Shown here: positions 1 through 37,661 of the stretch, one piece after another | Position numbering within the stretch: position 1 is the first letter of the stretch | How the letters are laid out: each line of letters opens with the position of its first letter | From: a virus | Taxonomy: Duplodnaviria; Heunggongvirae; Uroviricota; Caudoviricetes | DNA: 37,938 bases | IMG/VR virus record: IMGVR_UViG_2778261139_000008 | Direction: 5' to 3' (one strand) | Program-made: the position numbers and the translations under genes | The notes under the pieces: model-generated | The model's input: only the letters and a program-made list of their open reading frames with translations | Told to the model about the DNA's origin: nothing | Database searches by the model: none

Positions 1-229
1 TCATAGGTCGCTCACATCCTTAAGCGTTACCGGGCATTCAGGCTGGACAGTTAATGGCTGCCAGGGAAGCGTGGCATAGAAACGATCGCTTCCCGCTGCC
101 AGCTCTTCGAACATCCGACTCCCGGCGCTATCGTATTTGTACAGGGTTAGCGCCTCGCGTAGCGAAGTGTTGTCTTCGCACTGAGAAGATTGCCAGTAGA
201 GACGTCCTAACGAATAGGCGGAAAAATAG
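1..229 (-). CDS. Fragment of a flanking (host) ORF of unknown function, running off the window start; possibly truncated by the prophage insertion
   Basis: Minus-strand frame open from the phage end region down to position 1 with no stop; no recognisable family. The boundary at ~229 is a guess. Confidence 0.25.
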
Positions 230-249
230 TGCATATAGCGCGGCGATTT

Positions 250-330
250 TTTTGATACCGATTTGCATTTCATTTGATACCGCTGAAAAACGCCGATACG
301 CAACTTATTTGATACTAAATCGGCGCTTTT
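250..330. repeat. Cluster of direct TTGATAC(C/T)/GATACG repeats; candidate transposase end-binding sites of the phage right end
   Basis: GATAC at 255-259, 277-281, 295-299 and 311-315 (spacing 22/18/16 bp), about 40-110 bp beyond the mom stop, where Mu carries its R-end MuA sites. Does not match the Mu consensus exactly. Confidence 0.35.
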
Positions 331-361
331 CTTTTGAGTTTTAGAATGAGTTTTTAAGCGC

Positions 362-1099
362 TCATTCACTCTCTTTCAAACCAGTTTTAACTGTTTGTGG
401 TTTTGGGTAAGGCTGGACTTTGAATAGCTTTGTGTTGAGGCGTTTTCTGGCCCTCTTGTTCAGAAACCGGATGTAACGAAACTGTCGGAACTTATGCACA
501 CTGGCTCTGTCGATATTAGCCCTCAGATGTTCACCTCGTTGTCCGCCTCGTTTAATGGCACTCCTGCAAATCTCGTGATACCACTCGCCATCAAGTTCAT
601 AGAATGTTGATTCATGGCTGCCTACATAATCAAAATTGCTTGCCTGATACACGACACCAAGACAGCCACAACGCTCATCTGCAAACGACTGAACCCACTG
701 TACCTGCGGATAAAGCTGCCTGATTAGCTTGAGCGCGTAACTGATTGCCCTTGATTCGGAGTTTCTCGGCATACAGTCATGCATCCATAGCCGGTTAAGC
801 TCCATATATTCTCGGTTCTGCGTACCCGTTACGACGCGTGCACCACTGTTTGGGTTAAGGGCGTAACCCCATTGCATTACGCCAACAAGTTCCCGTTCTG
901 AAAATATACCCAGATGAAGGTAGGAATTATTTACGAAACGGTGGCTGTAATGTTTATTGACGATAACCAGTCTGGCCAGCCAGCAACTTATTGTCTCAAC
1001 CCGCAACTCACGGGAGCCATAACCAACGATATTGTCGTTATAGCGAATAAGTTCAGGCGTGCTGATGATACGGGATGTGACTTGCTTTCTGTTCCCCAC
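362..1099 (-). CDS. mom: Mom-like DNA modification protein
   Basis: 245-aa ORF immediately downstream of, and overlapping, a Com-like zinc-finger gene at the phage right end, as in Mu com-mom. The annotated start is GTG, so the true start is uncertain. Confidence 0.7.
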
Positions 1100-1253
1100 G
1101 ACAGGATTTCCTTGTGTATGTGGGGTGCTCTGTGGCGCTCGGAGATGTGATTTGATTGAGGGTTTTACAGCGCGGACATTTTACTTCCAGATAACTGAAA
1201 CTGGCCCGTGCCAGTAGCTTATTGCAGTGTCGGCACCGTATGTTTCGATACAT
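1053..1253 (-). CDS. com: Com-like zinc-finger translational activator of mom
   Basis: [10 protein letters not shown]...VKCPRCK C4 zinc-finger closely resembles Mu Com. ATG at 1253 with AGGAGG upstream; the ORF track extends to a TTG at 1298. The 3' end overlaps mom by 47 nt. Confidence 0.8.
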
Positions 1254-1298
1254 GGCCGCATAACCTCCTGCTTTGTTGTTGATGCCTTTCTCATGCAA

Positions 1299-1440
1299 TC
1301 GATCGACAAAAACGATCGATTCGATTTGTTTAATTGATACAACAAATAGATTTAAAAGTCATCAACAATGATTCAGGGCGGTGATTATTTACTTAAAGAA
1401 ACGAAGAGTTAGGTGGTGAAAACGATCATAAAATGATCAT
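1299..1440 (-). promoter_or_regulatory. Candidate com-mom promoter/regulatory region with GATC clusters
   Basis: AT-rich region upstream of com with GATC at 1301-1304 and 1314-1317 (embedded in a CGATCGA...CGATCGA repeat) and a second pair at 1424-1427 and 1435-1438. In Mu, mom transcription is Dam/OxyR-controlled through clustered GATC sites. Confidence 0.4.
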
Positions 1441-1525
1441 TTTATTGACTTTTTATACAGTGAAGGTAGGATCGCGCGTATATGTAGTATGTTTCAAATC
1501 AACAGGATACTACATAAAAGGGAAA

Positions 1526-1551
1526 CCCAGCATAGCTGGAACTATGCTGGG
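1526..1551 (-). terminator. Hairpin (10-bp perfect stem CCCAGCATAG/CTATGCTGGG, 6-nt loop) followed by a T-rich tract on the minus strand
   Basis: Perfect inverted repeat seen directly. T-rich run (TTTCCCTTTTAT) on the minus-strand 3' side. No obvious upstream gene on that strand, so the function is unclear. Confidence 0.3.
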
Positions 1552-1659
1552 TCAATCTGTAAAAACTTGCATCAATGCTTTACTTCGAGCTCGTGGCGTA
1601 TCCTATGATATTCCCCGGTCTCCTGTAAAGCAGAGATGCATAAAAAGGAGATCTTTATC

Positions 1660-1830
1660 ATGGATAAAGAGCCTGTTTGCCCTGCCTGTAAGACTCCCTT
1701 ACAGCTCATCTATCGCCGTTCTCGATCTCAAAATGGCAAGACATACAAACCAAAAAATGCTTCCTGTTTCAGGATGCTGATATGTCCTGCCTGTTCTCCC
1801 CGGAGGGAAAATACACAAAACGTGCATTAA
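1660..1830 (+). CDS. Small zinc-ribbon protein (CPAC...CPAC), unknown function
   Basis: ATG at 1660 preceded by AAAGGAG at good spacing; 56 aa with two CPAC pairs; plus strand, convergent with the cargo operon. Confidence 0.4.
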   Translation: MDKEPVCPACKTPLQLIYRRSRSQNGKTYKPKNASCFRMLICPACSPRRENTQNVH

Positions 1831-1839
1831 CAAATTCAC

Positions 1840-1859
1840 CCGGCAGGGAAACCTGCCGG
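1840..1859. terminator. GC-rich hairpin (CCGGCAGG-GAAA-CCTGCCGG) between convergent genes; probable bidirectional terminator
   Basis: Perfect 8-bp stem with GAAA tetraloop located between the stop of the plus-strand Zn-ribbon ORF (1830) and the stop of the minus-strand 81-aa ORF (1869). Flanking T-rich bases are modest. Confidence 0.5.
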
Positions 1860-1868
1860 TCGGTATTG

Positions 1869-2114
1869 TTACATCATAGTACCGTCAGTTCCGGGTTGAA
1901 CCGGCTCTGGTTGCTCTACGGGTTGAGGCTCATTTTCCGTGCTGTTTTCAGCCGGAGAACGACCAACCATTCGGGCCAGCACTTCATCAACATATGCGTC
2001 GATTTGTGCCTCAAAATCCTTGCGAACCTGCGCCTTCAGCACGCGGTTCACTTCTTCAGAATAAAGTGCCTGTTTGACAAGCTCTTCAGTAACCGTGCCT
2101 TTAATCTCTGGCAT
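1869..2114 (-). CDS. Hypothetical protein, 81 aa, acidic Pro/Glu-rich C-terminus
   Basis: ATG-started ORF directly downstream of the small membrane ORF in the cargo operon; no family recognised. Confidence 0.5.
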   Translation of the reverse strand: MPEIKGTVTEELVKQALYSEEVNRVLKAQVRKDFEAQIDAYVDEVLARMVGRSPAENSTENEPQPVEQPEPVQPGTDGTMM

Positions 2115-2149
2115 GAATATTCTCCTTTCCTTTTCTGGTTCACAAAAAA

Positions 2150-2329
2150 TTAAATCTGACCGGAGTCTTTCGGCTGCGGCATTACAGCACCGCTTTTTAT
2201 CTTTTCCTCGGCAGCTGCATCAATTTTATTTCGAAAATAATTGCGAATAATTTTATAACCACCGCTGACAAGCAACAGACAACAAACCACCGTGCAGAAA
2301 TACAGCAGGCAGACGTTTATATATGTCAT
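2150..2329 (-). CDS. Small membrane protein (59 aa; one N-terminal TM helix, charged C-terminal tail)
   Basis: Hand-translated: MTYINVCLLYFCTVVCCLLLVSGGYKIIRNYFRNKIDAAAEEKIKSGAVMPQPKDSGQI. ATG at 2329 with GAGG-type RBS. Below the 60-aa cutoff of the ORF track. Confidence 0.45.
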   Translation of the reverse strand: MTYINVCLLYFCTVVCCLLLVSGGYKIIRNYFRNKIDAAAEEKIKSGAVMPQPKDSGQI

Positions 2330-2386
2330 ATAAGCCTCACTCTTATTAACTGATGTTACAGCCGGATAAATTCCCGGCCGTCACGA

Positions 2387-4435
2387 TTATGCCGCAGGGG
2401 TATTAACCTCAAGGACAACGCTCTCAAAAGACACGCCATAAGTTGCCCCTTTGGTGACATCTGTCAGTGTCAGCGTATCTTTGGCAGGGGAAAGTGCATC
2501 TTTCACCATCTGGAATGCCTGGCCCGGAGTGCCATCCAGCACAGGCGTTACCTGGGCACTTCCCGCCGTAAACTTCAGGACAAGTGTATGCCACTGGTTA
2601 TTGTAGGCTCCAAATGATCCCAGTTTCGTATTCCCCCCTGTTTTATGGTGCATCAGATTTAACTGGCCGCCTGTTGTCTGGAGATAATACGCCATCAGGA
2701 ACGGTGTGCCTGTACCACTCATGGTTACACCTTCCGGGACCGTATCGGTGTGGAGGTAAATACCCAGAGCAAACTGGCCTTCTTTTACTTCACCTGACAG
2801 ACGGAATTTACAGGTCAACTGACCACCATGCTTCAGAAGTTCACCGGCTGCATCAGTTCCATGGGTAAGCGTCCAGGTTTTTCCGCTTTGTTTGGATACG
2901 GTCAACGCTTTACCTTCGTCCGTCAGCTGGATTGTACCATCTGTAATTTTCCAGCCCTGAGCCGGGGCTTCTCCTGCTGATGCTTTAAGTGAAAGCAGCG
3001 TACGGAGTGACGGGGATGTCGGATGGGGGGACTCACTGCCTCCTGGCTGACTACCTGTCGGCGCTTCCGGTTTCCCACCCGGCGCGGGCTGAGGCAGGGC
3101 TTCACCATCAGGGGCCACACCGGCAATAAATGCAGAGGTCAGACCTGCATATTTAAGAATTGCTGATGCAAAACGATCTGAGACCAGAAAACGGCGCGCC
3201 CAGGAGCTAAAATGGGTTGCCCTGGATGCTGTTGTCCAGTTGCCATCTCCCCGTGATTCCGCACCATAATACCCGGCAGAAGCGATATCCGGGTCGTGCT
3301 CCGGCAGGTTGGTCGCGGTTTTATTACCGAACTCATCGTGCATCAGTGGAACAAAGTGAATGTTCTCGGAAGCCCGGTTTTTATATCCGCTATAAATGGT
3401 TTCATATGCCGCCGGGTTCTTCTCTTTCCAGTCATAGGTTGTGTCACCACATAACCACGGCACACTGTCTGATGAACCACCAATACACTGACCGGAGAAA
3501 GCACCAAGATCCGCACGGAATTTTTTCACCATCGCAGTAAACTGGGCACCATGCTGGGCCGGGGTCGCTTTAAGGTCTCCTTCCCCCTGAATCCATACGA
3601 CAGATAACAGCACATTCTTTGGATTCGCCTCAAGTGCCGCTTTAGTTCGACTGACAAGATCCTGATACAGTGGGGTATCCACTCCCCAGCGTAGTGACGC
3701 CTCGGCTGCACCACTTGCCGGATCGAATGAGCCAACTGCGCCGGTTGTAAAAGCAGAGCCGCCACGGGCACAGGGAACCAGTAAAATCCCGGCATCAGCA
3801 GGAATCACCGGTAATACTTTTTTCGCAATATGAAGTCCCTGCCCCACACAACCATACTGCCCTTTTTTCAGGTCTGCTTTTGGATGGTTCAGCAGACTCA
3901 TATTCTGAACATCATGAAGGCAGTGATCTGCTGGAATGATTTCATTGTATTTGCAGGGAATACCTCCGGGGGTTTGTGTATTCCTGCGTGCCAGCTGCAT
4001 AATACGTGGATCAGGACGATCATAAGAATCCGGAAGGGGCAACCCTTCACCATAAGATGAAGCATTGGACTGGCCGGCTATAACAATCACGTAATACCAG
4101 GAAGGGGAGCTGGAAGCAGTTTCATTTCCTGACGGACGGGTATGTGTTTCAGCATTATCCCAGTCTGACGGTTCAGCAGTACCGGCAACATCAGCACTTA
4201 ACGGAATGACCGCACCAATACCCGCTCCGGTAATTTCCACACTCGGATCACCGGATACTGGCCTTACCCACAGGCAATCCCGTGTATTAAAACTGATGAG
4301 ACAGTCAGCAAATGTCATTCCTCCTTTTGTTTCGGCCGGAGGAAAGGGAGCCTCAAGAAATGCCGCTGTACCACCGGAAACTTTAACAGTAAAGTTTCCG
4401 GGCATTGATGATAGTTGAACCCATTTGGACGTCAT
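2387..4435 (-). CDS. SGNH/SASA-family carbohydrate O-acetylesterase-like protein with Pro/Gly-rich linker and C-terminal beta-rich (lectin-like) domain; NanS-p-like or tailspike-type deacetylase
   Basis: 682 aa, ATG start. Motifs VIVIAGQSNASSYGEG and VVWIQGEGD match the nucleophile and acid motifs of sialate O-acetylesterase-type SGNH hydrolases. Low-complexity P/G/S linker near residue 440. Not part of the canonical Mu gene set. Confidence 0.6.
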   Translation of the reverse strand: MTSKWVQLSSMPGNFTVKVSGGTAAFLEAPFPPAETKGGMTFADCLISFNTRDCLWVRPVSGDPSVEITGAGIGAVIPLSADVAGTAEPSDWDNAETHTRPSGNETASSSPSWYYVIVIAGQSNASSYGEGLPLPDSYDRPDPRIMQLARRNTQTPGGIPCKYNEIIPADHCLHDVQNMSLLNHPKADLKKGQYGCVGQGLHIAKKVLPVIPADAGILLVPCARGGSAFTTGAVGSFDPASGAAEASLRWGVDTPLYQDLVSRTKAALEANPKNVLLSVVWIQGEGDLKATPAQHGAQFTAMVKKFRADLGAFSGQCIGGSSDSVPWLCGDTTYDWKEKNPAAYETIYSGYKNRASENIHFVPLMHDEFGNKTATNLPEHDPDIASAGYYGAESRGDGNWTTASRATHFSSWARRFLVSDRFASAILKYAGLTSAFIAGVAPDGEALPQPAPGGKPEAPTGSQPGGSESPHPTSPSLRTLLSLKASAGEAPAQGWKITDGTIQLTDEGKALTVSKQSGKTWTLTHGTDAAGELLKHGGQLTCKFRLSGEVKEGQFALGIYLHTDTVPEGVTMSGTGTPFLMAYYLQTTGGQLNLMHHKTGGNTKLGSFGAYNNQWHTLVLKFTAGSAQVTPVLDGTPGQAFQMVKDALSPAKDTLTLTDVTKGATYGVSFESVVLEVNTPAA

Positions 4436-4534
4436 AATAATCAGCCTGTTCCTGAATAAACTGAATTATCATATCCACAGACCGATAAACGCCATTTTGC
4501 GTTAATTCAGTAAAGGCCCAACAAAGAGAGCGTC

Positions 4535-5095
4535 TTATTTTTCCGAAACGCTCGCAGGATAATAACGATAAAGGGTTGAAAGACCGATATCAAAAATAAG
4601 TGCCACCTGTCTTCGACTGACACCCCCGGCCAGTAAACGCCCGACCTGCTCGTATTGTTCCTGCGTGAGACGGCGGGGTCTGCCGCCGGTTCGTCCCCTT
4701 TCACGGGCAGCTGCAAGACCAGCCCGTGTCCGTTCGACAATTAATTCACGCTCCATTTCTGCCAGCGCACCCATTATGTGAAAAAAGAAACGCCCCATGG
4801 GGGTTGACGTATCAATGTTGTCAGTAAGACTACGAAAATTTATCCCCTGTTGCTGTAATTCATCTGTCAGCGCAACAAGGTGGCGCATACTGCGCCCCAG
4901 CCTGTCCAGTTTCCAGACCATCAGTGTGTCACCGGGTTTTAGTTTCTTCAGTGCCCGCTTCAGTCCCGGCCGCTGTGTCGTTTTACCACTCATTTTGTCT
5001 TCAAAAATCTGCTCACATCCTGCACATTCCAGCGCATTTCTTTGTAAACCGGTGTTCTGGTCATTTGTTGATACGCGTATATAGCCAATCAGCAT
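4535..5095 (-). CDS. gin: Gin-type serine DNA invertase
   Basis: N-terminus MLIGYIRVSTNDQNTGLQRNALECAGCEQIFEDK... is near-identical in pattern to Mu Gin/Hin/Cin resolvase-invertases (catalytic Ser in RVST). C-terminal HTH. Adjacent to a gix site. Confidence 0.95.
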   Translation of the reverse strand: MLIGYIRVSTNDQNTGLQRNALECAGCEQIFEDKMSGKTTQRPGLKRALKKLKPGDTLMVWKLDRLGRSMRHLVALTDELQQQGINFRSLTDNIDTSTPMGRFFFHIMGALAEMERELIVERTRAGLAAARERGRTGGRPRRLTQEQYEQVGRLLAGGVSRRQVALIFDIGLSTLYRYYPASVSEK

Positions 5096-5150
5096 GTATT
5101 TACCTTCCTTAAAAAGAGGTGAAAATGCCTTTTAAAACAGATATACGGTA

Positions 5151-5176
5151 TCCCTGAAAACCTCGGTTTACGGGAA
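5151..5176. other. gix recombination site (gin-proximal)
   Basis: TCCCTGAAAACC-TC-GGTTTACGGGAA: 26-bp imperfect palindrome matching the hix/gix half-site pattern TTCYTGNAAACC, 55 bp upstream of the gin start. Confidence 0.75.
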
Positions 5177-5545
5177 ACGGTAAATAAGGCTGCTGATGCC
5201 CTGCCATCGGGTGGAACCGCCGTGGCAGCAAACAGACTCGCCACCCCAAGAAATATTAATGGCGTTCCTTTTGACGGAACGCAGGATATCAACATCACGT
5301 CAGGAATGACGCAGTCAACCGCAGATGGCCGGTATGTACAGAATGTTCAGCTTGGAGCACAGAGCTATCATTCACCCGGAGGCAATGAAATATCATGGAA
5401 TTACAGCGCACCTTCCGGTTGTATGCTTTCCGGTATTAACGTGCAGGAAACCGGCTCCCGGTCTGCGGACAATATCGGTGGGGTCTATTATCGCCCGGTT
5501 CAGATTTATATTAATAATGCCTGGAGAACGGTAAGTTCAGTGTAA
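5165..5545 (+). other. Silent alternative tail-fibre C-terminal cassette (Sv'), promoterless in the current orientation
   Basis: Plus-strand frame reads ...GLRETVNKAADALPSGGTAVAANRLATPRNINGVPFDGTQDINITSGMTQS... from the gix site, paralleling S residues ~177-230 and then diverging to a different C-terminus ending at 5545. Confidence 0.7.
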
Positions 5546-5555
5546 ACCACAGAAA

Positions 5556-5574
5556 AGGGTGCTGAATGCACCCT
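5556..5574. terminator. Short hairpin between convergent Sv' cassette and U gene; possible terminator
   Basis: 7-bp stem (AGGGTGC/GCACCCT) with 5-nt loop lying between the Sv' stop (5545) and the U stop (5580). Confidence 0.35.
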
Positions 5575-5579
5575 CTGAA

Positions 5580-6101
5580 TTATTCCGGTTTTTCCGGCCA
5601 GGGAATCGCCTGGTAATGCCCCTCACTGGCAATATCATTAAAGTGCATTTCTTTAAGCTGTCGGATATACGCCATCCAGCGCGTCAGCTGTAATTTATTT
5701 TCATCGCTAATCATGTCCAGTTTTAATTCTGTTTTCCAGTCATCCACGGTTTCGTTGGCTTCCTGGAGCAGCGATGAGCGACGCTTTTCAGCAACCGTCT
5801 TCCAGTTTACCGGCACCTTTGATATCAGGCCATCAGAAAACTGCCAGTTACCGTCAATATTCACACCTTCCGGCAGTTCGTCCACTTCAACAACAGTAAA
5901 ACCTGCCGGATATAAAGCAGAGACATCTTCAGCAACAGAGCAGATAATACCCGTTACAGGCGAAATACAGAGTTTGTATTTCTTTGTGAAAAGCGGGATA
6001 GATTCATAAAAATCCCTTCCGTCCTCACTCTGGAAATACTGAACATCCTCACCATAGGGTTTGTGTTCCGGGTAATATCGTTTTACGTTAATAAGCTCCA
6101 T
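5580..6101 (-). CDS. Tail fibre assembly protein (Mu U-like / Tfa family)
   Basis: ~173-aa protein directly downstream of the tail-fibre gene. ATG at 6101 with AAGGTG RBS; the ORF track start at 6212 overlaps S and is less likely. AT-rich like other tfa genes. Confidence 0.75.
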   Translation of the reverse strand: MELINVKRYYPEHKPYGEDVQYFQSEDGRDFYESIPLFTKKYKLCISPVTGIICSVAEDVSALYPAGFTVVEVDELPEGVNIDGNWQFSDGLISKVPVNWKTVAEKRRSSLLQEANETVDDWKTELKLDMISDENKLQLTRWMAYIRQLKEMHFNDIASEGHYQAIPWPEKPE

Positions 6102-27872: not shown

Positions 27873-28335
27873 CCGCCGAACGGCGGGCCTCAAGGCCGGG
27901 GAGTTTCACCCCCTTTGAATAAATCCAGCGGATATACTGCTTACAGGACGCGGGCATCTGCCCGGCATTGATCAGGCGCAGAAGCGTGGAGTTGCGAAAG
28001 TTCGTTTCACCGGCCCAGAAGATCCACGAAGCCAGCGCCACCGTCTGACCACGGGTAAGCGGCACCTGAACACGCCGATCAATGGCCGCAAAGGCCCATT
28101 TCATGTCCTTTTCCAGTAGTTCCAGGCATTCTTCATCTGTCAGGGTCATACCCGGTTTCACATCCGGGCCGGTATGGCCGTAACAGATGGTGGGTGTACC
28201 GGTGGGATCGATATACGTGGAGTTTTCTTTCCCTTCCCAGTAACCGGTGTAATGCGTGGCAATCGTGAACGTCCCGGCACCGGCCAGAACAAGGGCAATC
28301 AGCTTTTTACGCAGTGGTGCGGGGAGTTTTGGCAT
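27835..28335 (-). CDS. Endolysin, phage lysozyme family with N-terminal signal-arrest-release-like hydrophobic segment
   Basis: 166 aa; N-terminal weakly hydrophobic Gly/Ala-rich segment (LIALVLAGAGTFTIA) followed by a lysozyme-like core with TICYGHTG. Confidence 0.88.
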   Translation of the reverse strand: MPKLPAPLRKKLIALVLAGAGTFTIATHYTGYWEGKENSTYIDPTGTPTICYGHTGPDVKPGMTLTDEECLELLEKDMKWAFAAIDRRVQVPLTRGQTVALASWIFWAGETNFRNSTLLRLINAGQMPASCKQYIRWIYSKGVKLPGLEARRSADEWLCRYDLPKV

Positions 28336-35570: not shown

Positions 35571-37661
35571 TCAGGCCAGCGGGTCATTTTCTTTTAATTT
35601 CGCTTCCAGCAACTGCAATCCCCGCTGGAAATTACGCTCGTATTCTTCATCAGGTTCATCGTCAGCGACCGGTTGCTGAACGGTCACCGTATTACCCACA
35701 GGGCGGTATATGTTTTCCAGCCAGGGCTCCTGCGGCTTGTGCTCCAGCACGTTGACAACCTCATCCTCGGCATCACGGATTTTTTCCTCTGCGCGTTTAC
35801 GCATGCCTTTAAGGCGTTGCTGCTGTTTGTAGTATTCCGCGCTAACCGGGAAGGCTTCGCGTTTATTACCGTCCCATACCGCCTCGCAAATCACGCTGCC
35901 ATCCAGGCGACGTACGGTAATTCGTTCGGCATCATGAATGTCATAGCTGATAAGCACCTTACGACCATGCTCGTCACGCAGCTCGGGCGCGTAGTAAATA
36001 TTATTCAGCCAGCGTATTTCACAGCGTCTTACAGGGCGTTCCACCATCGGCCGGAACATATCCCGCAGCTCAACATCGGACAGCCATTCAATTTCCGTGT
36101 CCTCTTCCGCCAGGCGTTTTTTTCTGAACTCCGCCGGGCTGTAATGCTTGCCGTTCGGCTTCACCGGTAATTCATCGTGCGGCCGGTTGTTGTACCACTC
36201 AACACCGTCACGAATGGCATCAATCAGTTCAGACCAGGACGGTAAATCACGCATCGCTGACTGCTGCCGGGCGTTCAGCCGTTTGCCCTGTTGCAGGGCA
36301 GTAAATGCCGAGCGTAAATCGCGGTTGGTTTTGCGTAACGTCTCGCGATCTGCACCTTTCCCGAAATAGGTGCGGTATTTACGGGCTATGCGCATCGGTA
36401 ATGTGCGGTTAAGCCGTTCGATAATGCCTCGTCCCTGCGGATTACCGGCAATCCCGGTCGGGTGATTAATCCCCAGTCGCGGCAGTATCCCCACAACCTC
36501 CTTATCCAGGATGTCGGCGGTTTCCCCGGAGCCGTTATCCGAGTAATACAGAAACGGTTTGCCGTGATGGCGAATGCCGTGCTGTATGGCACCGGCTACG
36601 GCGAAAACATTTTCAGCCAGGTCAAGGCTCCAGCCCACCACAAAGCGCGTGCCACCGTCGATAACAAAGGTCACTTCCGGTGCAAATGGCCGACCGTGAA
36701 CCGGGTGTGCGCATTTCAGCTTCATGCCGTGACCGTCACCAATCCAGACATAATTCACCGGCATTCTGGACCAGTCGCGGCGCGTGAATCCCTCAAGCTG
36801 GCGGTATTCACTGCCGGTCACCCGGCCTTTTTGTTTCACCACTTCCGGCAGTTTCTTCATTGCGCGGCGAATGGTGTCATAAGACGGCATGATATCGAGC
36901 ATATAAGGCTCATCAGCGTGCCGGTGCTGCCATTCAGCGACAAAATCCTCGTAAGCCTCGGTCATTGGTCGGCCGTTTGACTGGCGATACTGCGCCAGAA
37001 ATTCGGGCAGCCAGTTAATATCTTCGGCTTTTATTTCCTGGCGCTTACCCGGTGCCAGTAAAAGCAGGCGTTCAGCGGCGTTCTGCGCCTTGTTAAAGGC
37101 CGCAATCCAGCGTTTCAGCGTTATTTCACTCAACGCACGGCTGTTTCCCTTTTTGGCGTTCGCCGTCTCAACCATTGCCACAATGCGCTCGTCCAGTTGC
37201 GAACGTGCCAGGTTGTCAACGATAAACCGGATAGCTTTCGCACAGCTGAAACCGGGTTGTTGCGCGACTTTCATCACTTCGCTGACGATCGCAATTCGTG
37301 CATCAGCCACCTGGCGCTGGTTTTCAGTCAGGGCATTAAGGCGTTCAACCATCAGTTGTGGTGATCCGCGATATGCCTCCACCGCATCAACCACGGCAGG
37401 CGAGCGTCTGGCCTTTGTCACCACCGGAGCCGGTGATTCATCAGCTTTTTGCGTCATCAGTTGAAGGGCATAACGTTCACGCAATACTTGTTGCGCGCCA
37501 GAAGGCAAACAATCGATATTAAATTCGATTGCTTTTGTCCCCTTACGTTTGCGTAACATGGCTGCATTTCCCGCAGCTGCTTTTGTGAGTCGATGGCGAA
37601 TGTTATGTTCCATCATTGGTAAATCAGGAAGACCAACACATTCTTTTGCTGTTACCCACAT
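35571..37661 (-). CDS. A: DDE transposase A (MuA-like)
   Basis: 696 aa; N-terminus MWVTAKEC.GLP… parallels Mu A (…WVSPKECANLPGLP…); size and position between ner and B. Confidence 0.95.
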   Translation of the reverse strand: MWVTAKECVGLPDLPMMEHNIRHRLTKAAAGNAAMLRKRKGTKAIEFNIDCLPSGAQQVLRERYALQLMTQKADESPAPVVTKARRSPAVVDAVEAYRGSPQLMVERLNALTENQRQVADARIAIVSEVMKVAQQPGFSCAKAIRFIVDNLARSQLDERIVAMVETANAKKGNSRALSEITLKRWIAAFNKAQNAAERLLLLAPGKRQEIKAEDINWLPEFLAQYRQSNGRPMTEAYEDFVAEWQHRHADEPYMLDIMPSYDTIRRAMKKLPEVVKQKGRVTGSEYRQLEGFTRRDWSRMPVNYVWIGDGHGMKLKCAHPVHGRPFAPEVTFVIDGGTRFVVGWSLDLAENVFAVAGAIQHGIRHHGKPFLYYSDNGSGETADILDKEVVGILPRLGINHPTGIAGNPQGRGIIERLNRTLPMRIARKYRTYFGKGADRETLRKTNRDLRSAFTALQQGKRLNARQQSAMRDLPSWSELIDAIRDGVEWYNNRPHDELPVKPNGKHYSPAEFRKKRLAEEDTEIEWLSDVELRDMFRPMVERPVRRCEIRWLNNIYYAPELRDEHGRKVLISYDIHDAERITVRRLDGSVICEAVWDGNKREAFPVSAEYYKQQQRLKGMRKRAEEKIRDAEDEVVNVLEHKPQEPWLENIYRPVGNTVTVQQPVADDEPDEEYERNFQRGLQLLEAKLKENDPLA

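Follow-up and report, generated by a model that had tools for sequence, protein, structure and literature searches.

Small open reading frames beside a sialate O-acetylesterase gene in a Mu-like prophage: an esterase cassette and a putative zinc-ribbon slot gene

Which genes does a Mu-like prophage carry between its invertase gene gin and the neighbouring com and mom genes, and do the small ones among them belong together? The question is raised by a stretch of 37,938 nucleotides (nt) from a virus of the class Caudoviricetes (IMG/VR record IMGVR_UViG_2778261139_000008), referred to throughout as the window, in which three short open reading frames (ORFs) lie at positions 1660 to 2329, next to a gene for a NanS-p-type sialate O-acetylesterase. 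The window is oriented so that its left end corresponds to the right end of a reversed Mu-like prophage. In phage Mu itself a spacer of 94 base pairs (bp), from the end of gin at 35673 to the start of com at 35768, contains the mom promoter alone; the gin-com interval of the window is ~3.3 kb. Because Mu has only the mom promoter there, we regard these ~3.3 kb as cargo, which bears out the view of an earlier, sequence-only reading that the three ORFs stand outside the canonical Mu set. That reading had treated all three as unknown ORFs travelling with the esterase. Our best explanation, to which we give a probability of roughly 0.55, divides them: two minus-strand ORFs, of the families DUF1378 and DUF826, would form a cassette with the esterase, and the third, a zinc-ribbon ORF on the plus strand, would be a separate gene of a variable slot. 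What is gained is mainly annotation, in that two ORFs called unknown are assigned to named families and to a cassette common to Shiga toxin (Stx) and Mu-like prophages; current understanding is not overturned.

Two minus-strand genes of named families

Profile searches place the minus-strand pair in two Pfam families, so the label of unknown ORFs no longer applies to it. The ORF of 59 amino acids (aa) nearest to the esterase matches the DUF1378 profile with 83.8 bits (gathering cut-off 25; E 9e-24) over its residues 1-48, and phrog_494 with E 4e-29. It also fits the traits of that family, which are a length of ~50-64 aa, an N-terminal hydrophobic helix and the motif LYFC..V..L.L.SGGY..R...R..ID, whose positions are the invariant columns in DUF1378 alignments. 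A single membrane span and a good ribosome-binding site (RBS) had been read from the sequence at 2150-2329, and both are present, as one hydrophobic stretch at residues 4-22 (Kyte-Doolittle 19-residue maximum 2.46) and as GTGAGG 5 nt before the ATG. The protein consists of an N-terminus of 3-4 residues, the membrane helix, SGGY at the membrane edge, a basic amphipathic stretch and a Pro/charged tail, and by the positive-inside rule its C-terminus would lie in the cytoplasm.

The second ORF, of 81 aa, matches the DUF826 profile with 56.5 bits (gathering cut-off 25; E 3e-15) over residues 1-52 and phrog_311 with E 5e-30, and has the RBS AAGGAG 6 nt before its ATG. Its acidic Pro/Glu-rich tail at 1869-2114 is as first described, with six Pro and six Asp/Glu in residues 53-81 and an isoelectric point (pI) of 4.4 for the whole protein. 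The N-terminal 52 residues are helical and conserved, and the tail varies between alleles, in length as well, with a conserved hydrophobic end (...MM(L)); an alignment of nine DUF826 sequences was too variable for a pattern to be derived from it. The AlphaFold2 model, with a mean predicted local distance difference test score (pLDDT) of 70.6, has helices at residues 10-17 and 20-50 and a disordered stretch at 56-81, and DUF826 is accordingly modelled as an acidic soluble protein that would consist of one long helix and a disordered tail.

Both genes turned out to be conserved across related prophages. DUF1378 is intact in 85 related loci, with a median pairwise ratio of non-synonymous to synonymous substitution rates (dN/dS) of 0.20 among 25 distinct alleles, and DUF826 in 81, with a median of 0.32; in a subset of four loci a truncated DUF826 of 63 aa stands beside an intact DUF1378. 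By their substitution patterns the two ORFs are genuine genes under purifying selection. Both families are very small; in a set of 1.84 billion proteins DUF1378 forms 267 clusters when grouped at 90% identity and is down to 37 representatives at 50%, and nearly all of its named members come from E. coli and Shigella. DUF1378 and DUF826 patterns found no relative in a collection of one genome per species, and PDB sequence searches with the DUF826 profile, the DUF1378 profile and the zinc-ribbon protein gave nothing below E = 0.2. NCBIfam gave no meaningful match for any of the ORFs. Longer DUF1378 relatives of 80-91 aa were considered as DUF1378-DUF826 fusions, an idea that we dropped as the hhalign probabilities (P = 0.13-0.18) were not significant.

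The esterase cassette in lambdoid and Mu-like prophages

In the window the order is esterase, DUF1378, DUF826, running from 4435 to 1869 on the minus strand throughout, with spacers of 57 and 35 nt and a strong RBS of its own before each small gene (PGAP puts the start of the esterase gene at 4405). The same order on one strand was found in 80 of 80 IMG/VR loci, which were collected by a pattern scan with the DUF1378 alignment, with neighbours identified by tblastn and the order scored where the flank was sufficient. Sixty-one of these loci are lambdoid, with Q/stx upstream and holin S and R downstream, and the other 19 are Mu-like, with the arrangement gin-cassette-com-mom. The pair of membrane and soluble proteins therefore does travel with the esterase, as the sequence-only reading had it; the zinc-ribbon ORF, which completed the supposed trio, does not, being absent from all lambdoid cassettes. 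In a collection of phage records the esterase was found in 347 records, DUF1378 in 309 and DUF826 in 306, with a nearly equal breakdown by organism, counts in which the short queries probably miss diverged alleles. The non-Stx lambdoid phage PhiR12_2 has the same cassette arrangement; we found no support for the label "head completion protein" that its DUF826 gene bears. A survey from 2023 that dealt with the Q-S region in Stx2a phages recorded DUF826 and DUF1378 ORFs between nanS-p and S (PMC10462455). The esterase, DUF1378 and DUF826 make up a colinear cassette, which in lambdoid Stx prophages has Q/stx on one side and the pinholin gene S on the other. The cassette is thus already known from Stx phages, and its presence here in a Mu-like backbone is a real but mostly ordinary observation.

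A comparison with phage 933W makes the relationship clearer. Downstream of the esterase L0105 there come an unannotated 59-aa ORF, a 90-aa ORF inside the mis-called L0106, and then holin S. The window esterase is 51% identical to L0105 (over 632 aa), its DUF1378 is 53% identical to the unannotated ORF and its DUF826 47% identical to the C-terminal part of L0106, and therefore all three proteins are about equally diverged. The three families, their order and their strand are the same in the window as in lambdoid Stx prophages (933W and the gp84 region of phi24B), and the spacing is similar. The surroundings differ: the lambdoid cassette lies between Q/stx and holin S, whereas that of the window lies between gin and com/mom, and the window has no S21-type holin anywhere. 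When the DNA of 1380-2400 was compared with 50,697 phage records, it matched only two records with an inserted Mu-like phage, and none that is lambdoid. The window esterase also lacks the DUF1737 N-domain of the lambdoid enzymes (no PF08410 match), which in phi24B was reported to bind the capsid (bioRxiv 10.64898/2026.04.10.717836).

The comparison also shows the L0106 gene call of 933W to be wrong. In AF125520 the 148-aa L0106 is a mis-call, and the apparent genes are a 59-aa DUF1378 at 5262-5441 and a 90-aa DUF826 at 5482-5754. The family phrog_8301 probably reflects the same mis-call.

A part of the cassette differs between Mu-like prophages that are otherwise close to one another. Against the Sp18-type prophage of O157 FRIK2069, nucleotide identity is 97-100% over 1300-2100 and 4100-5100 and 34-74% over 2100-4100, and 168 of the 219 matching E. 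coli records match the window over 1300-2128 only. From this drop in identity, and from the records that stop at 2128, we infer that the swapped block comprises the catalytic and lectin part of the esterase together with DUF1378. The two prophages have in common gin, com and mom (97-100% nucleotide identity), DUF826, the zinc-ribbon form of the slot and the esterase's N-terminal domain; the window carries another allele of the esterase core and DUF1378, and is without an extra G that in O157 fuses the zinc-ribbon ORF into an ORF of 154 aa. The breakpoints at ~2128 and ~4100 are sharp; the right breakpoint of CP55_Sichuan is within DUF1378, at ~2230-2300.

The N-terminal ~105 aa of the esterase (4100-4435) are identical to the O157 Sp18-type copy, with the rest of the gene a diverged allele. 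They are specific to the Mu-like backbone and unrelated to the N-termini of 933W and PhiR12_2, and they match no Pfam family, with weak matches to phrog_9498/4772 only. By this comparison a domain peculiar to the Mu-like backbone has taken the place of the lambdoid N-terminal one, and it may attach the esterase to the virion. In their first 43 residues a Mu-like DUF1378 allele (L011; L numbers denote single loci) and the lambdoid allele L024 hardly differ, which points to exchange between Mu-like and lambdoid phages, and recombination is still swapping the alleles of the cassette.

Table 1. Features of the gin-mom end of the window, with positions counted from its first letter.
Feature	Position	Strand	Family or remark
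mom	362-1099	-	PF25680
com	1053-1253/1298	-	PF10122
mom promoter control region	1299-1348		Clustered GATC sites; position relative to com as in Mu
Hypervariable cargo slot	1349-1860		mom promoter region to DUF826 stop codon; three forms in Mu-like loci
18-bp perfect palindrome ATAAAATGATCATTTTAT	1428-1445		Central GATC (Dam site); abuts promoter-like site
Sigma-70-like promoter	1445-1472	+	TTGACT 1445-1450, 16-nt spacer, TAGGAT 1467-1472
Terminator-like hairpin	1514-1553	-	13-pair stem 1553-1524, then TTTCCCTTTTAT; tail TCCCTTTTAT
Putative orphan zinc-ribbon gene, 56 aa	1660-1830	+	CPAC-x31-CPAC; convergent on DUF826
44-bp imperfect palindrome	1828-1871		Spans both convergent stop codons; core is the 1840-1859 hairpin
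DUF826 family gene, 81 aa	1869-2114	-	PF05696, phrog_311
Allelic-replacement segment relative to O157 Sp18-type prophage	2128-4100		Esterase catalytic and lectin part, DUF1378
DUF1378 family gene, 59 aa	2150-2329	-	PF07125, phrog_494
NanS-p-type sialate O-acetylesterase gene, 682 aa	2387-4435	-	SASA domain PF03629; DUF6645 lectin-like C-terminal domain PF20350
gin invertase gene	4535-5095	-	

Possible roles of the pair

The constant company of the esterase suggests one role directly, namely that DUF1378 and DUF826 are helpers of the enzyme, a membrane anchor and a cytoplasmic adaptor that position, release or regulate a NanS-p protein without a signal peptide. Strict colinearity at all 80 loci and on two unrelated backbones would fit such helpers, as would the move of the pair with the esterase into a Mu-like prophage, far from lysis genes, the fact that the unit swapped among Mu-like prophages is the esterase core plus DUF1378, and the same narrow host range of all three genes in E. 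coli and Shigella. We nevertheless hold it to be unlikely, as each small gene occurs without a SASA esterase nearby (in lysis cassettes, after tail-fibre-assembly genes and upstream of terminase), as in phi24B the esterase decorates the capsid and its assembly takes place in the cytoplasm, no such helpers being mentioned (bioRxiv 10.64898/2026.04.10.717836), and as the colinearity can also be explained by a single transfer of a short block followed by homologous exchange. In E. coli the pair is always with the esterase, yet it is also found without it beside lysis genes, which narrows the choice of experiments by which a function could be assigned.

One of these other contexts is a lysis cassette. 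In the Stenotrophomonas phage vB_SmeS_BUCT709 and nine related IMG/VR contigs a DUF1378 homologue ends a cassette in the order P21-type holin (PF04971), lysozyme (PF00959; 71-77% identical to 933W R), Rz-like protein (176 aa, with a membrane helix at its N-terminus and a coiled coil) and DUF1378, whose start codon overlaps the Rz-like stop; a tailspike gene follows. Over 45 aa this DUF1378 has 40% identity with the 933W protein; it is 46-60% identical to the Mu-like alleles, and has the motif LLYF..VV..LYLV.GGYK.IR.Y in common with the family of the window. The cassette has no esterase and no DUF826, and the window differs again in that its DUF1378 lies ~25 kb from the lysozyme gene. In L087 and L088 a P21-type holin ORF (PF04971, 65 aa) lies ~200 nt upstream of the lysozyme gene, at a site where GenBank has a 78-aa hypothetical protein on the opposite strand.

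A similar independence is seen elsewhere. Another Mu-like group has gp48, tail fibre and tail-fibre assembly genes, then DUF826 and DUF1378 in this order or DUF1378 alone, then a D12 Dam methylase gene. DUF826 occurs alone directly upstream of the small terminase subunit gene (L129-L135), DUF1378 occurs without DUF826 (L088-L096, L116, L123, L124), and the order of the two is inverted in L109 and L126-L128. Because each occurs without the esterase, we take DUF1378 and DUF826 to be independent of it. In L109 an ORF at 3164-3673 on the minus strand, by eye hexapeptide-repeat acetyltransferase-like, stands between DUF1378 and the Dam methylase gene, so that this position too accepts cargo.

These contexts lead us to a tentative guess, one that falls somewhat short of an even bet, that DUF1378 is a late-expressed inner-membrane accessory of lysis of the pinholin/signal-arrest-release (SAR) endolysin type, and DUF826 a small late protein of the cytoplasm that is sometimes found with it. 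The guess is made because DUF1378 lies inside or adjoins P21-type pinholin/SAR-endolysin cassettes in two independent contexts, the BUCT709-type cassette and the lambdoid phages, where it stands just upstream of S. Its predicted membrane helix and charged cytoplasmic tail are also those of holin- and antiholin-type proteins. Small membrane-tethered and small cytoplasmic helical proteins tune holins and SAR endolysins in other phages, as do the RI/RIII antiholin pair of T4 and the "releasin" gp25 of Mu. As a purely functional analogy, the sizes and predicted locations of these proteins resemble those of DUF1378 and DUF826.

The same predicted architecture, with a short periplasmic N-terminus, one membrane helix and a charged cytoplasmic tail, would also suit a module of lysogenic conversion or superinfection exclusion, formed by the pair or by DUF1378 alone, in which an inner-membrane protein blocks the entry of incoming phage DNA; superinfection exclusion had been raised by the sequence-only reading. 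In four phage groups the genes occupy accessory positions at the ends of late operons, and in the Mu-like context they lie downstream of gin, which is expressed in Mu lysogens. On the other hand no PADLOC model matches, the lambdoid copies lie in the Q-dependent late operon and not in a region expressed during lysogeny, and in one context the gene sits within a lysis cassette, where its start codon overlaps the stop before it, so that we consider exclusion improbable.

Least probable of all, and in our view very unlikely, is a toxin-antitoxin or abortive-infection pair in which DUF1378 is a small membrane toxin and DUF826 its neutralising partner. The idea draws on the sight of a small hydrophobic peptide beside a small acidic protein, 35 nt apart and each with its own strong RBS, and the sequence-only reading had likewise thought of a toxin-like pair. 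The two are not obligate partners, however: several phage groups have one without the other and another has them inverted, which weakens the idea, and further against it are the four loci with the 63-aa DUF826 beside an intact DUF1378 and, again, the want of a PADLOC match (no PADLOC-DB family was found at E <= 1 for the three ORFs or for the alternative ORFs of the slot described below).

The zinc-ribbon gene and its slot

The third ORF was found as first described, a convergent 56-aa CPAC...CPAC zinc ribbon at 1660-1830. The CPAC motifs lie at residues 7-10 and 42-45, the pI is 9.8, and an AAGGAG stands 9 nt upstream of the start. It is intact in all 12 loci that have its form of the slot, and of its 11 variable sites 7 are synonymous and 4 non-synonymous in its own frame, compared with 2-3 synonymous and 8-9 non-synonymous in the other five frames (binomial P = 0.0076). 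It matches nothing in Pfam, PHROG, PADLOC or PDB; among 5.8 billion proteins it has four clusters, all from E. coli, and of 5426 complete E. coli genomes 201 carry it at >= 95% identity. An AlphaFold2 model (mean pLDDT 72.8) has two beta-hairpins with strands at 15-20 and 36-41, which would suit a zinc ribbon, and a Foldseek search of the PDB with this model gave nothing below E = 1, the best match (E = 1.3) and the others being generic zinc-ribbon modules only. Besides the lambdoid cassettes, 9 of 21 Mu-like loci lack the ORF and have other ORFs in its place. Its distribution suggests that it is unrelated to the esterase cassette and is an orphan restricted to E. coli; because of its high pI the protein is probably a nucleic-acid binder.

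Mu Com is like the zinc-ribbon ORF in being small and basic, in having two CxxC knuckles and in lying beside the mom control region, but its knuckles are 16 residues apart instead of 31 and the two genes are on opposite strands. A paralogy with Com was rejected, as the ORF has no PF10122 match and BLASTP against the Com of the window aligns only a knuckle of 13 residues.

In the PGAP annotation 1368-1830 is a copy, broken by a frameshift, of the gene for a 154-aa protein of O157 (WP_115801860.1; no meaningful NCBIfam match), which would make the zinc-ribbon ORF the surviving C-terminal piece of a decayed gene. The 154-aa ORF is indeed uninterrupted in O157:H7 strains, the window differs from it by two 1-nt deletions, near 1399 and 1665, and the identical sequence in E. 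coli 2012C-4502 is annotated as a pseudogene. The pattern of variation argues otherwise and leaves decay a poor prospect. Only 4 of the 12 slot-form sequences have the frame-fusing extra G, and two of these 4 are broken upstream; in the 154-aa frame the upstream part has 9 synonymous to 35 non-synonymous changes, against 12:32 and 13:31 in the other frames, and the zinc-ribbon part 7:4 against 3:8. The upstream part moreover holds a conserved terminator-like hairpin, a segment of ~50 bp in it is replaced in some of the 12 sequences, the interval varies in length between 566 and 580 bp and not in multiples of three, and the zinc-ribbon ORF has an RBS of its own. We therefore favour, with moderate confidence only because the variable sites are few, a 56-aa ORF that is the gene and a 154-aa ORF that is an artefact of a one-base fusion in the O157 lineage; the "frameshifted" pseudogene of PGAP would then probably be a real 56-aa gene. 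A perfect 8-bp inverted repeat (TCTTTATC/GATAAAGA, 1652-1670) flanks the zinc-ribbon ATG and would leave the start codon in a 3-nt loop. The extra G of O157 disrupts it, an observation made weak by the ~0.4 such repeats expected by chance.

The slot in which this ORF lies takes at least three alternative contents. The first form, of 566-580 bp, has the zinc-ribbon ORF (12 loci). The second, of 816-888 bp (6 loci), has window 1299-1641 in common and then a 68/76-aa ORF and a convergent 66-aa ORF, and the third, of 675 bp (3 loci), has only 1299-1348 in common and carries a 97-aa ORF. The mom promoter control region at 1299-1348 is thus the sole portion of the com-DUF826 interval shared by all forms. 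The 68/76-aa ORF of the second form (MDKLTTDQK...) overlaps its convergent 66-aa neighbour (L003 5441-5810, L008, L010, L017, L056), and the ORF of the third begins MDNHVTTRN... (L013, L015, L016); none of these ORFs has a Pfam or PADLOC family, with weak PHROG matches only. The slot gene appears to be transcribed away from the mom promoter, and the zinc-ribbon ORF to be one content among at least three. As a place to look for phage accessory genes, this variable slot is a new lead of modest weight.

Forms 1 and 2 also share a leader. The palindrome and the promoter at 1428-1472 are conserved in both, and make a candidate regulated promoter of the slot gene with an operator-like palindrome; the leader further has a 10-bp inverted repeat (1481-1490/1507-1516). 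The hairpin at 1524-1553 folds with -21.5 kcal/mol (z = -5.5; none of 200 shuffles folds as well) and has the GC-rich stem-loop and T tract of an intrinsic terminator. Its stem and T tract are kept in three sequence versions in related loci, for instance in L054, where two pairs are changed on both sides (A-T to G-C and C-G to T-A), and the 888-bp form has a tandem duplication of the whole module. A minus-strand promoter-like site (1629-1600, TTTACA-18-TAGGAT) lies upstream of this terminator. Speculatively, an RNA of ~80 nt could run from 1592 to 1514 on the minus strand, antisense to the zinc-ribbon leader; it has no Rfam match.

At the other end of the slot, a hairpin stands just before the DUF826 stop codon in all three forms. 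In the window it is the perfect GC hairpin with a GAAA loop noticed at first sight at 1840-1859, with an 8-bp stem (CCGGCAGG, 1840-1847; CCTGCCGG, 1852-1859), -17.8 kcal/mol and z = -3.6 to -3.7 relative to dinucleotide shuffles on either strand. In the other forms a different hairpin takes its position, with the stem CCGACAG...CTGTCGG in CP55 and AAACCGG...CCGGTTT in the 675-bp form, followed by TTTGTATTGTT with a better T tract. The palindrome at 1828-1871 is a candidate bidirectional terminator between convergent genes.

A scheme for the expression of the cassette can be put forward on this basis. A terminator scan found no convincing terminator between gin, the esterase and the small genes, and the three cassette genes would be read from the gin side as one minus-strand unit. 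Transcription would be stopped by the 1828-1871 palindrome, with the 1524-1553 terminator as a backup. The mom promoter is under Dam and OxyR control, and in the simplest reading the two hairpins would keep cassette transcription out of this tightly controlled promoter.

A bolder proposal concerns the slot and, separately, DUF1378. In it ~1349-1860 would be an exchangeable socket for accessory genes with a conserved leader of its own, made up of the GATC palindrome and promoter, structured hairpins and possibly an antisense RNA. The zinc-ribbon ORF would be one of several alternative cargoes and might act, for instance, in defence or anti-defence, in the regulation of mom, or as a type I toxin-like gene that an antisense RNA controls; DUF1378, for its part, could represent a new class of small membrane proteins that regulate pinholin/SAR-endolysin lysis. 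We attach little likelihood to this reading.

Several points weigh against the overall explanation of an esterase cassette with a separate slot gene and a lysis-related pair. The lysozyme gene of the window (27910-28335) is far from the cassette, and as there is no P21-type holin in the window a holin-specific role would lack its partner here, yet the genes are conserved; the lysis-cassette context moreover comes from one phage group (L087-L096). The direction of transcription, the termination and the function of the cassette are all read from letters. The models of DUF826 and the zinc-ribbon protein come from shallow alignments and reach only moderate confidence (pLDDT 71 and 73), the coding signature of the zinc ribbon comes from 11 variable sites only, and in the L049/P0003 allele its first Cys is a Tyr. 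Finally, the hairpin at 1840-1859 was not called by the terminator scan because its T tract is short, with only 4 T per strand in the scan window.

Other searches of this region added little. An Rfam scan of 1-5300 at E <= 1 gave two chance-level matches and nothing more, papers mentioning Sp18 hold nothing on the com-gin cargo region, and literature searches by locus tags and by Pfam and InterPro numbers found nothing relevant; in the sole other "DUF1378" paper found, the name is a typo for DUF1738. E. coli 2012C-4502 has the identical sequence, in a prophage that interrupts melA. The same type of prophage interrupts dcuC beside the nan operon in O157 FRIK2069 and an ABC-transporter gene in CP55_Sichuan, and these sites fit insertion of the transposition type. 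The tail-fibre segment beside gin lies in opposite orientations in 2012C-4502 and FRIK2069, which fits an invertible G segment.

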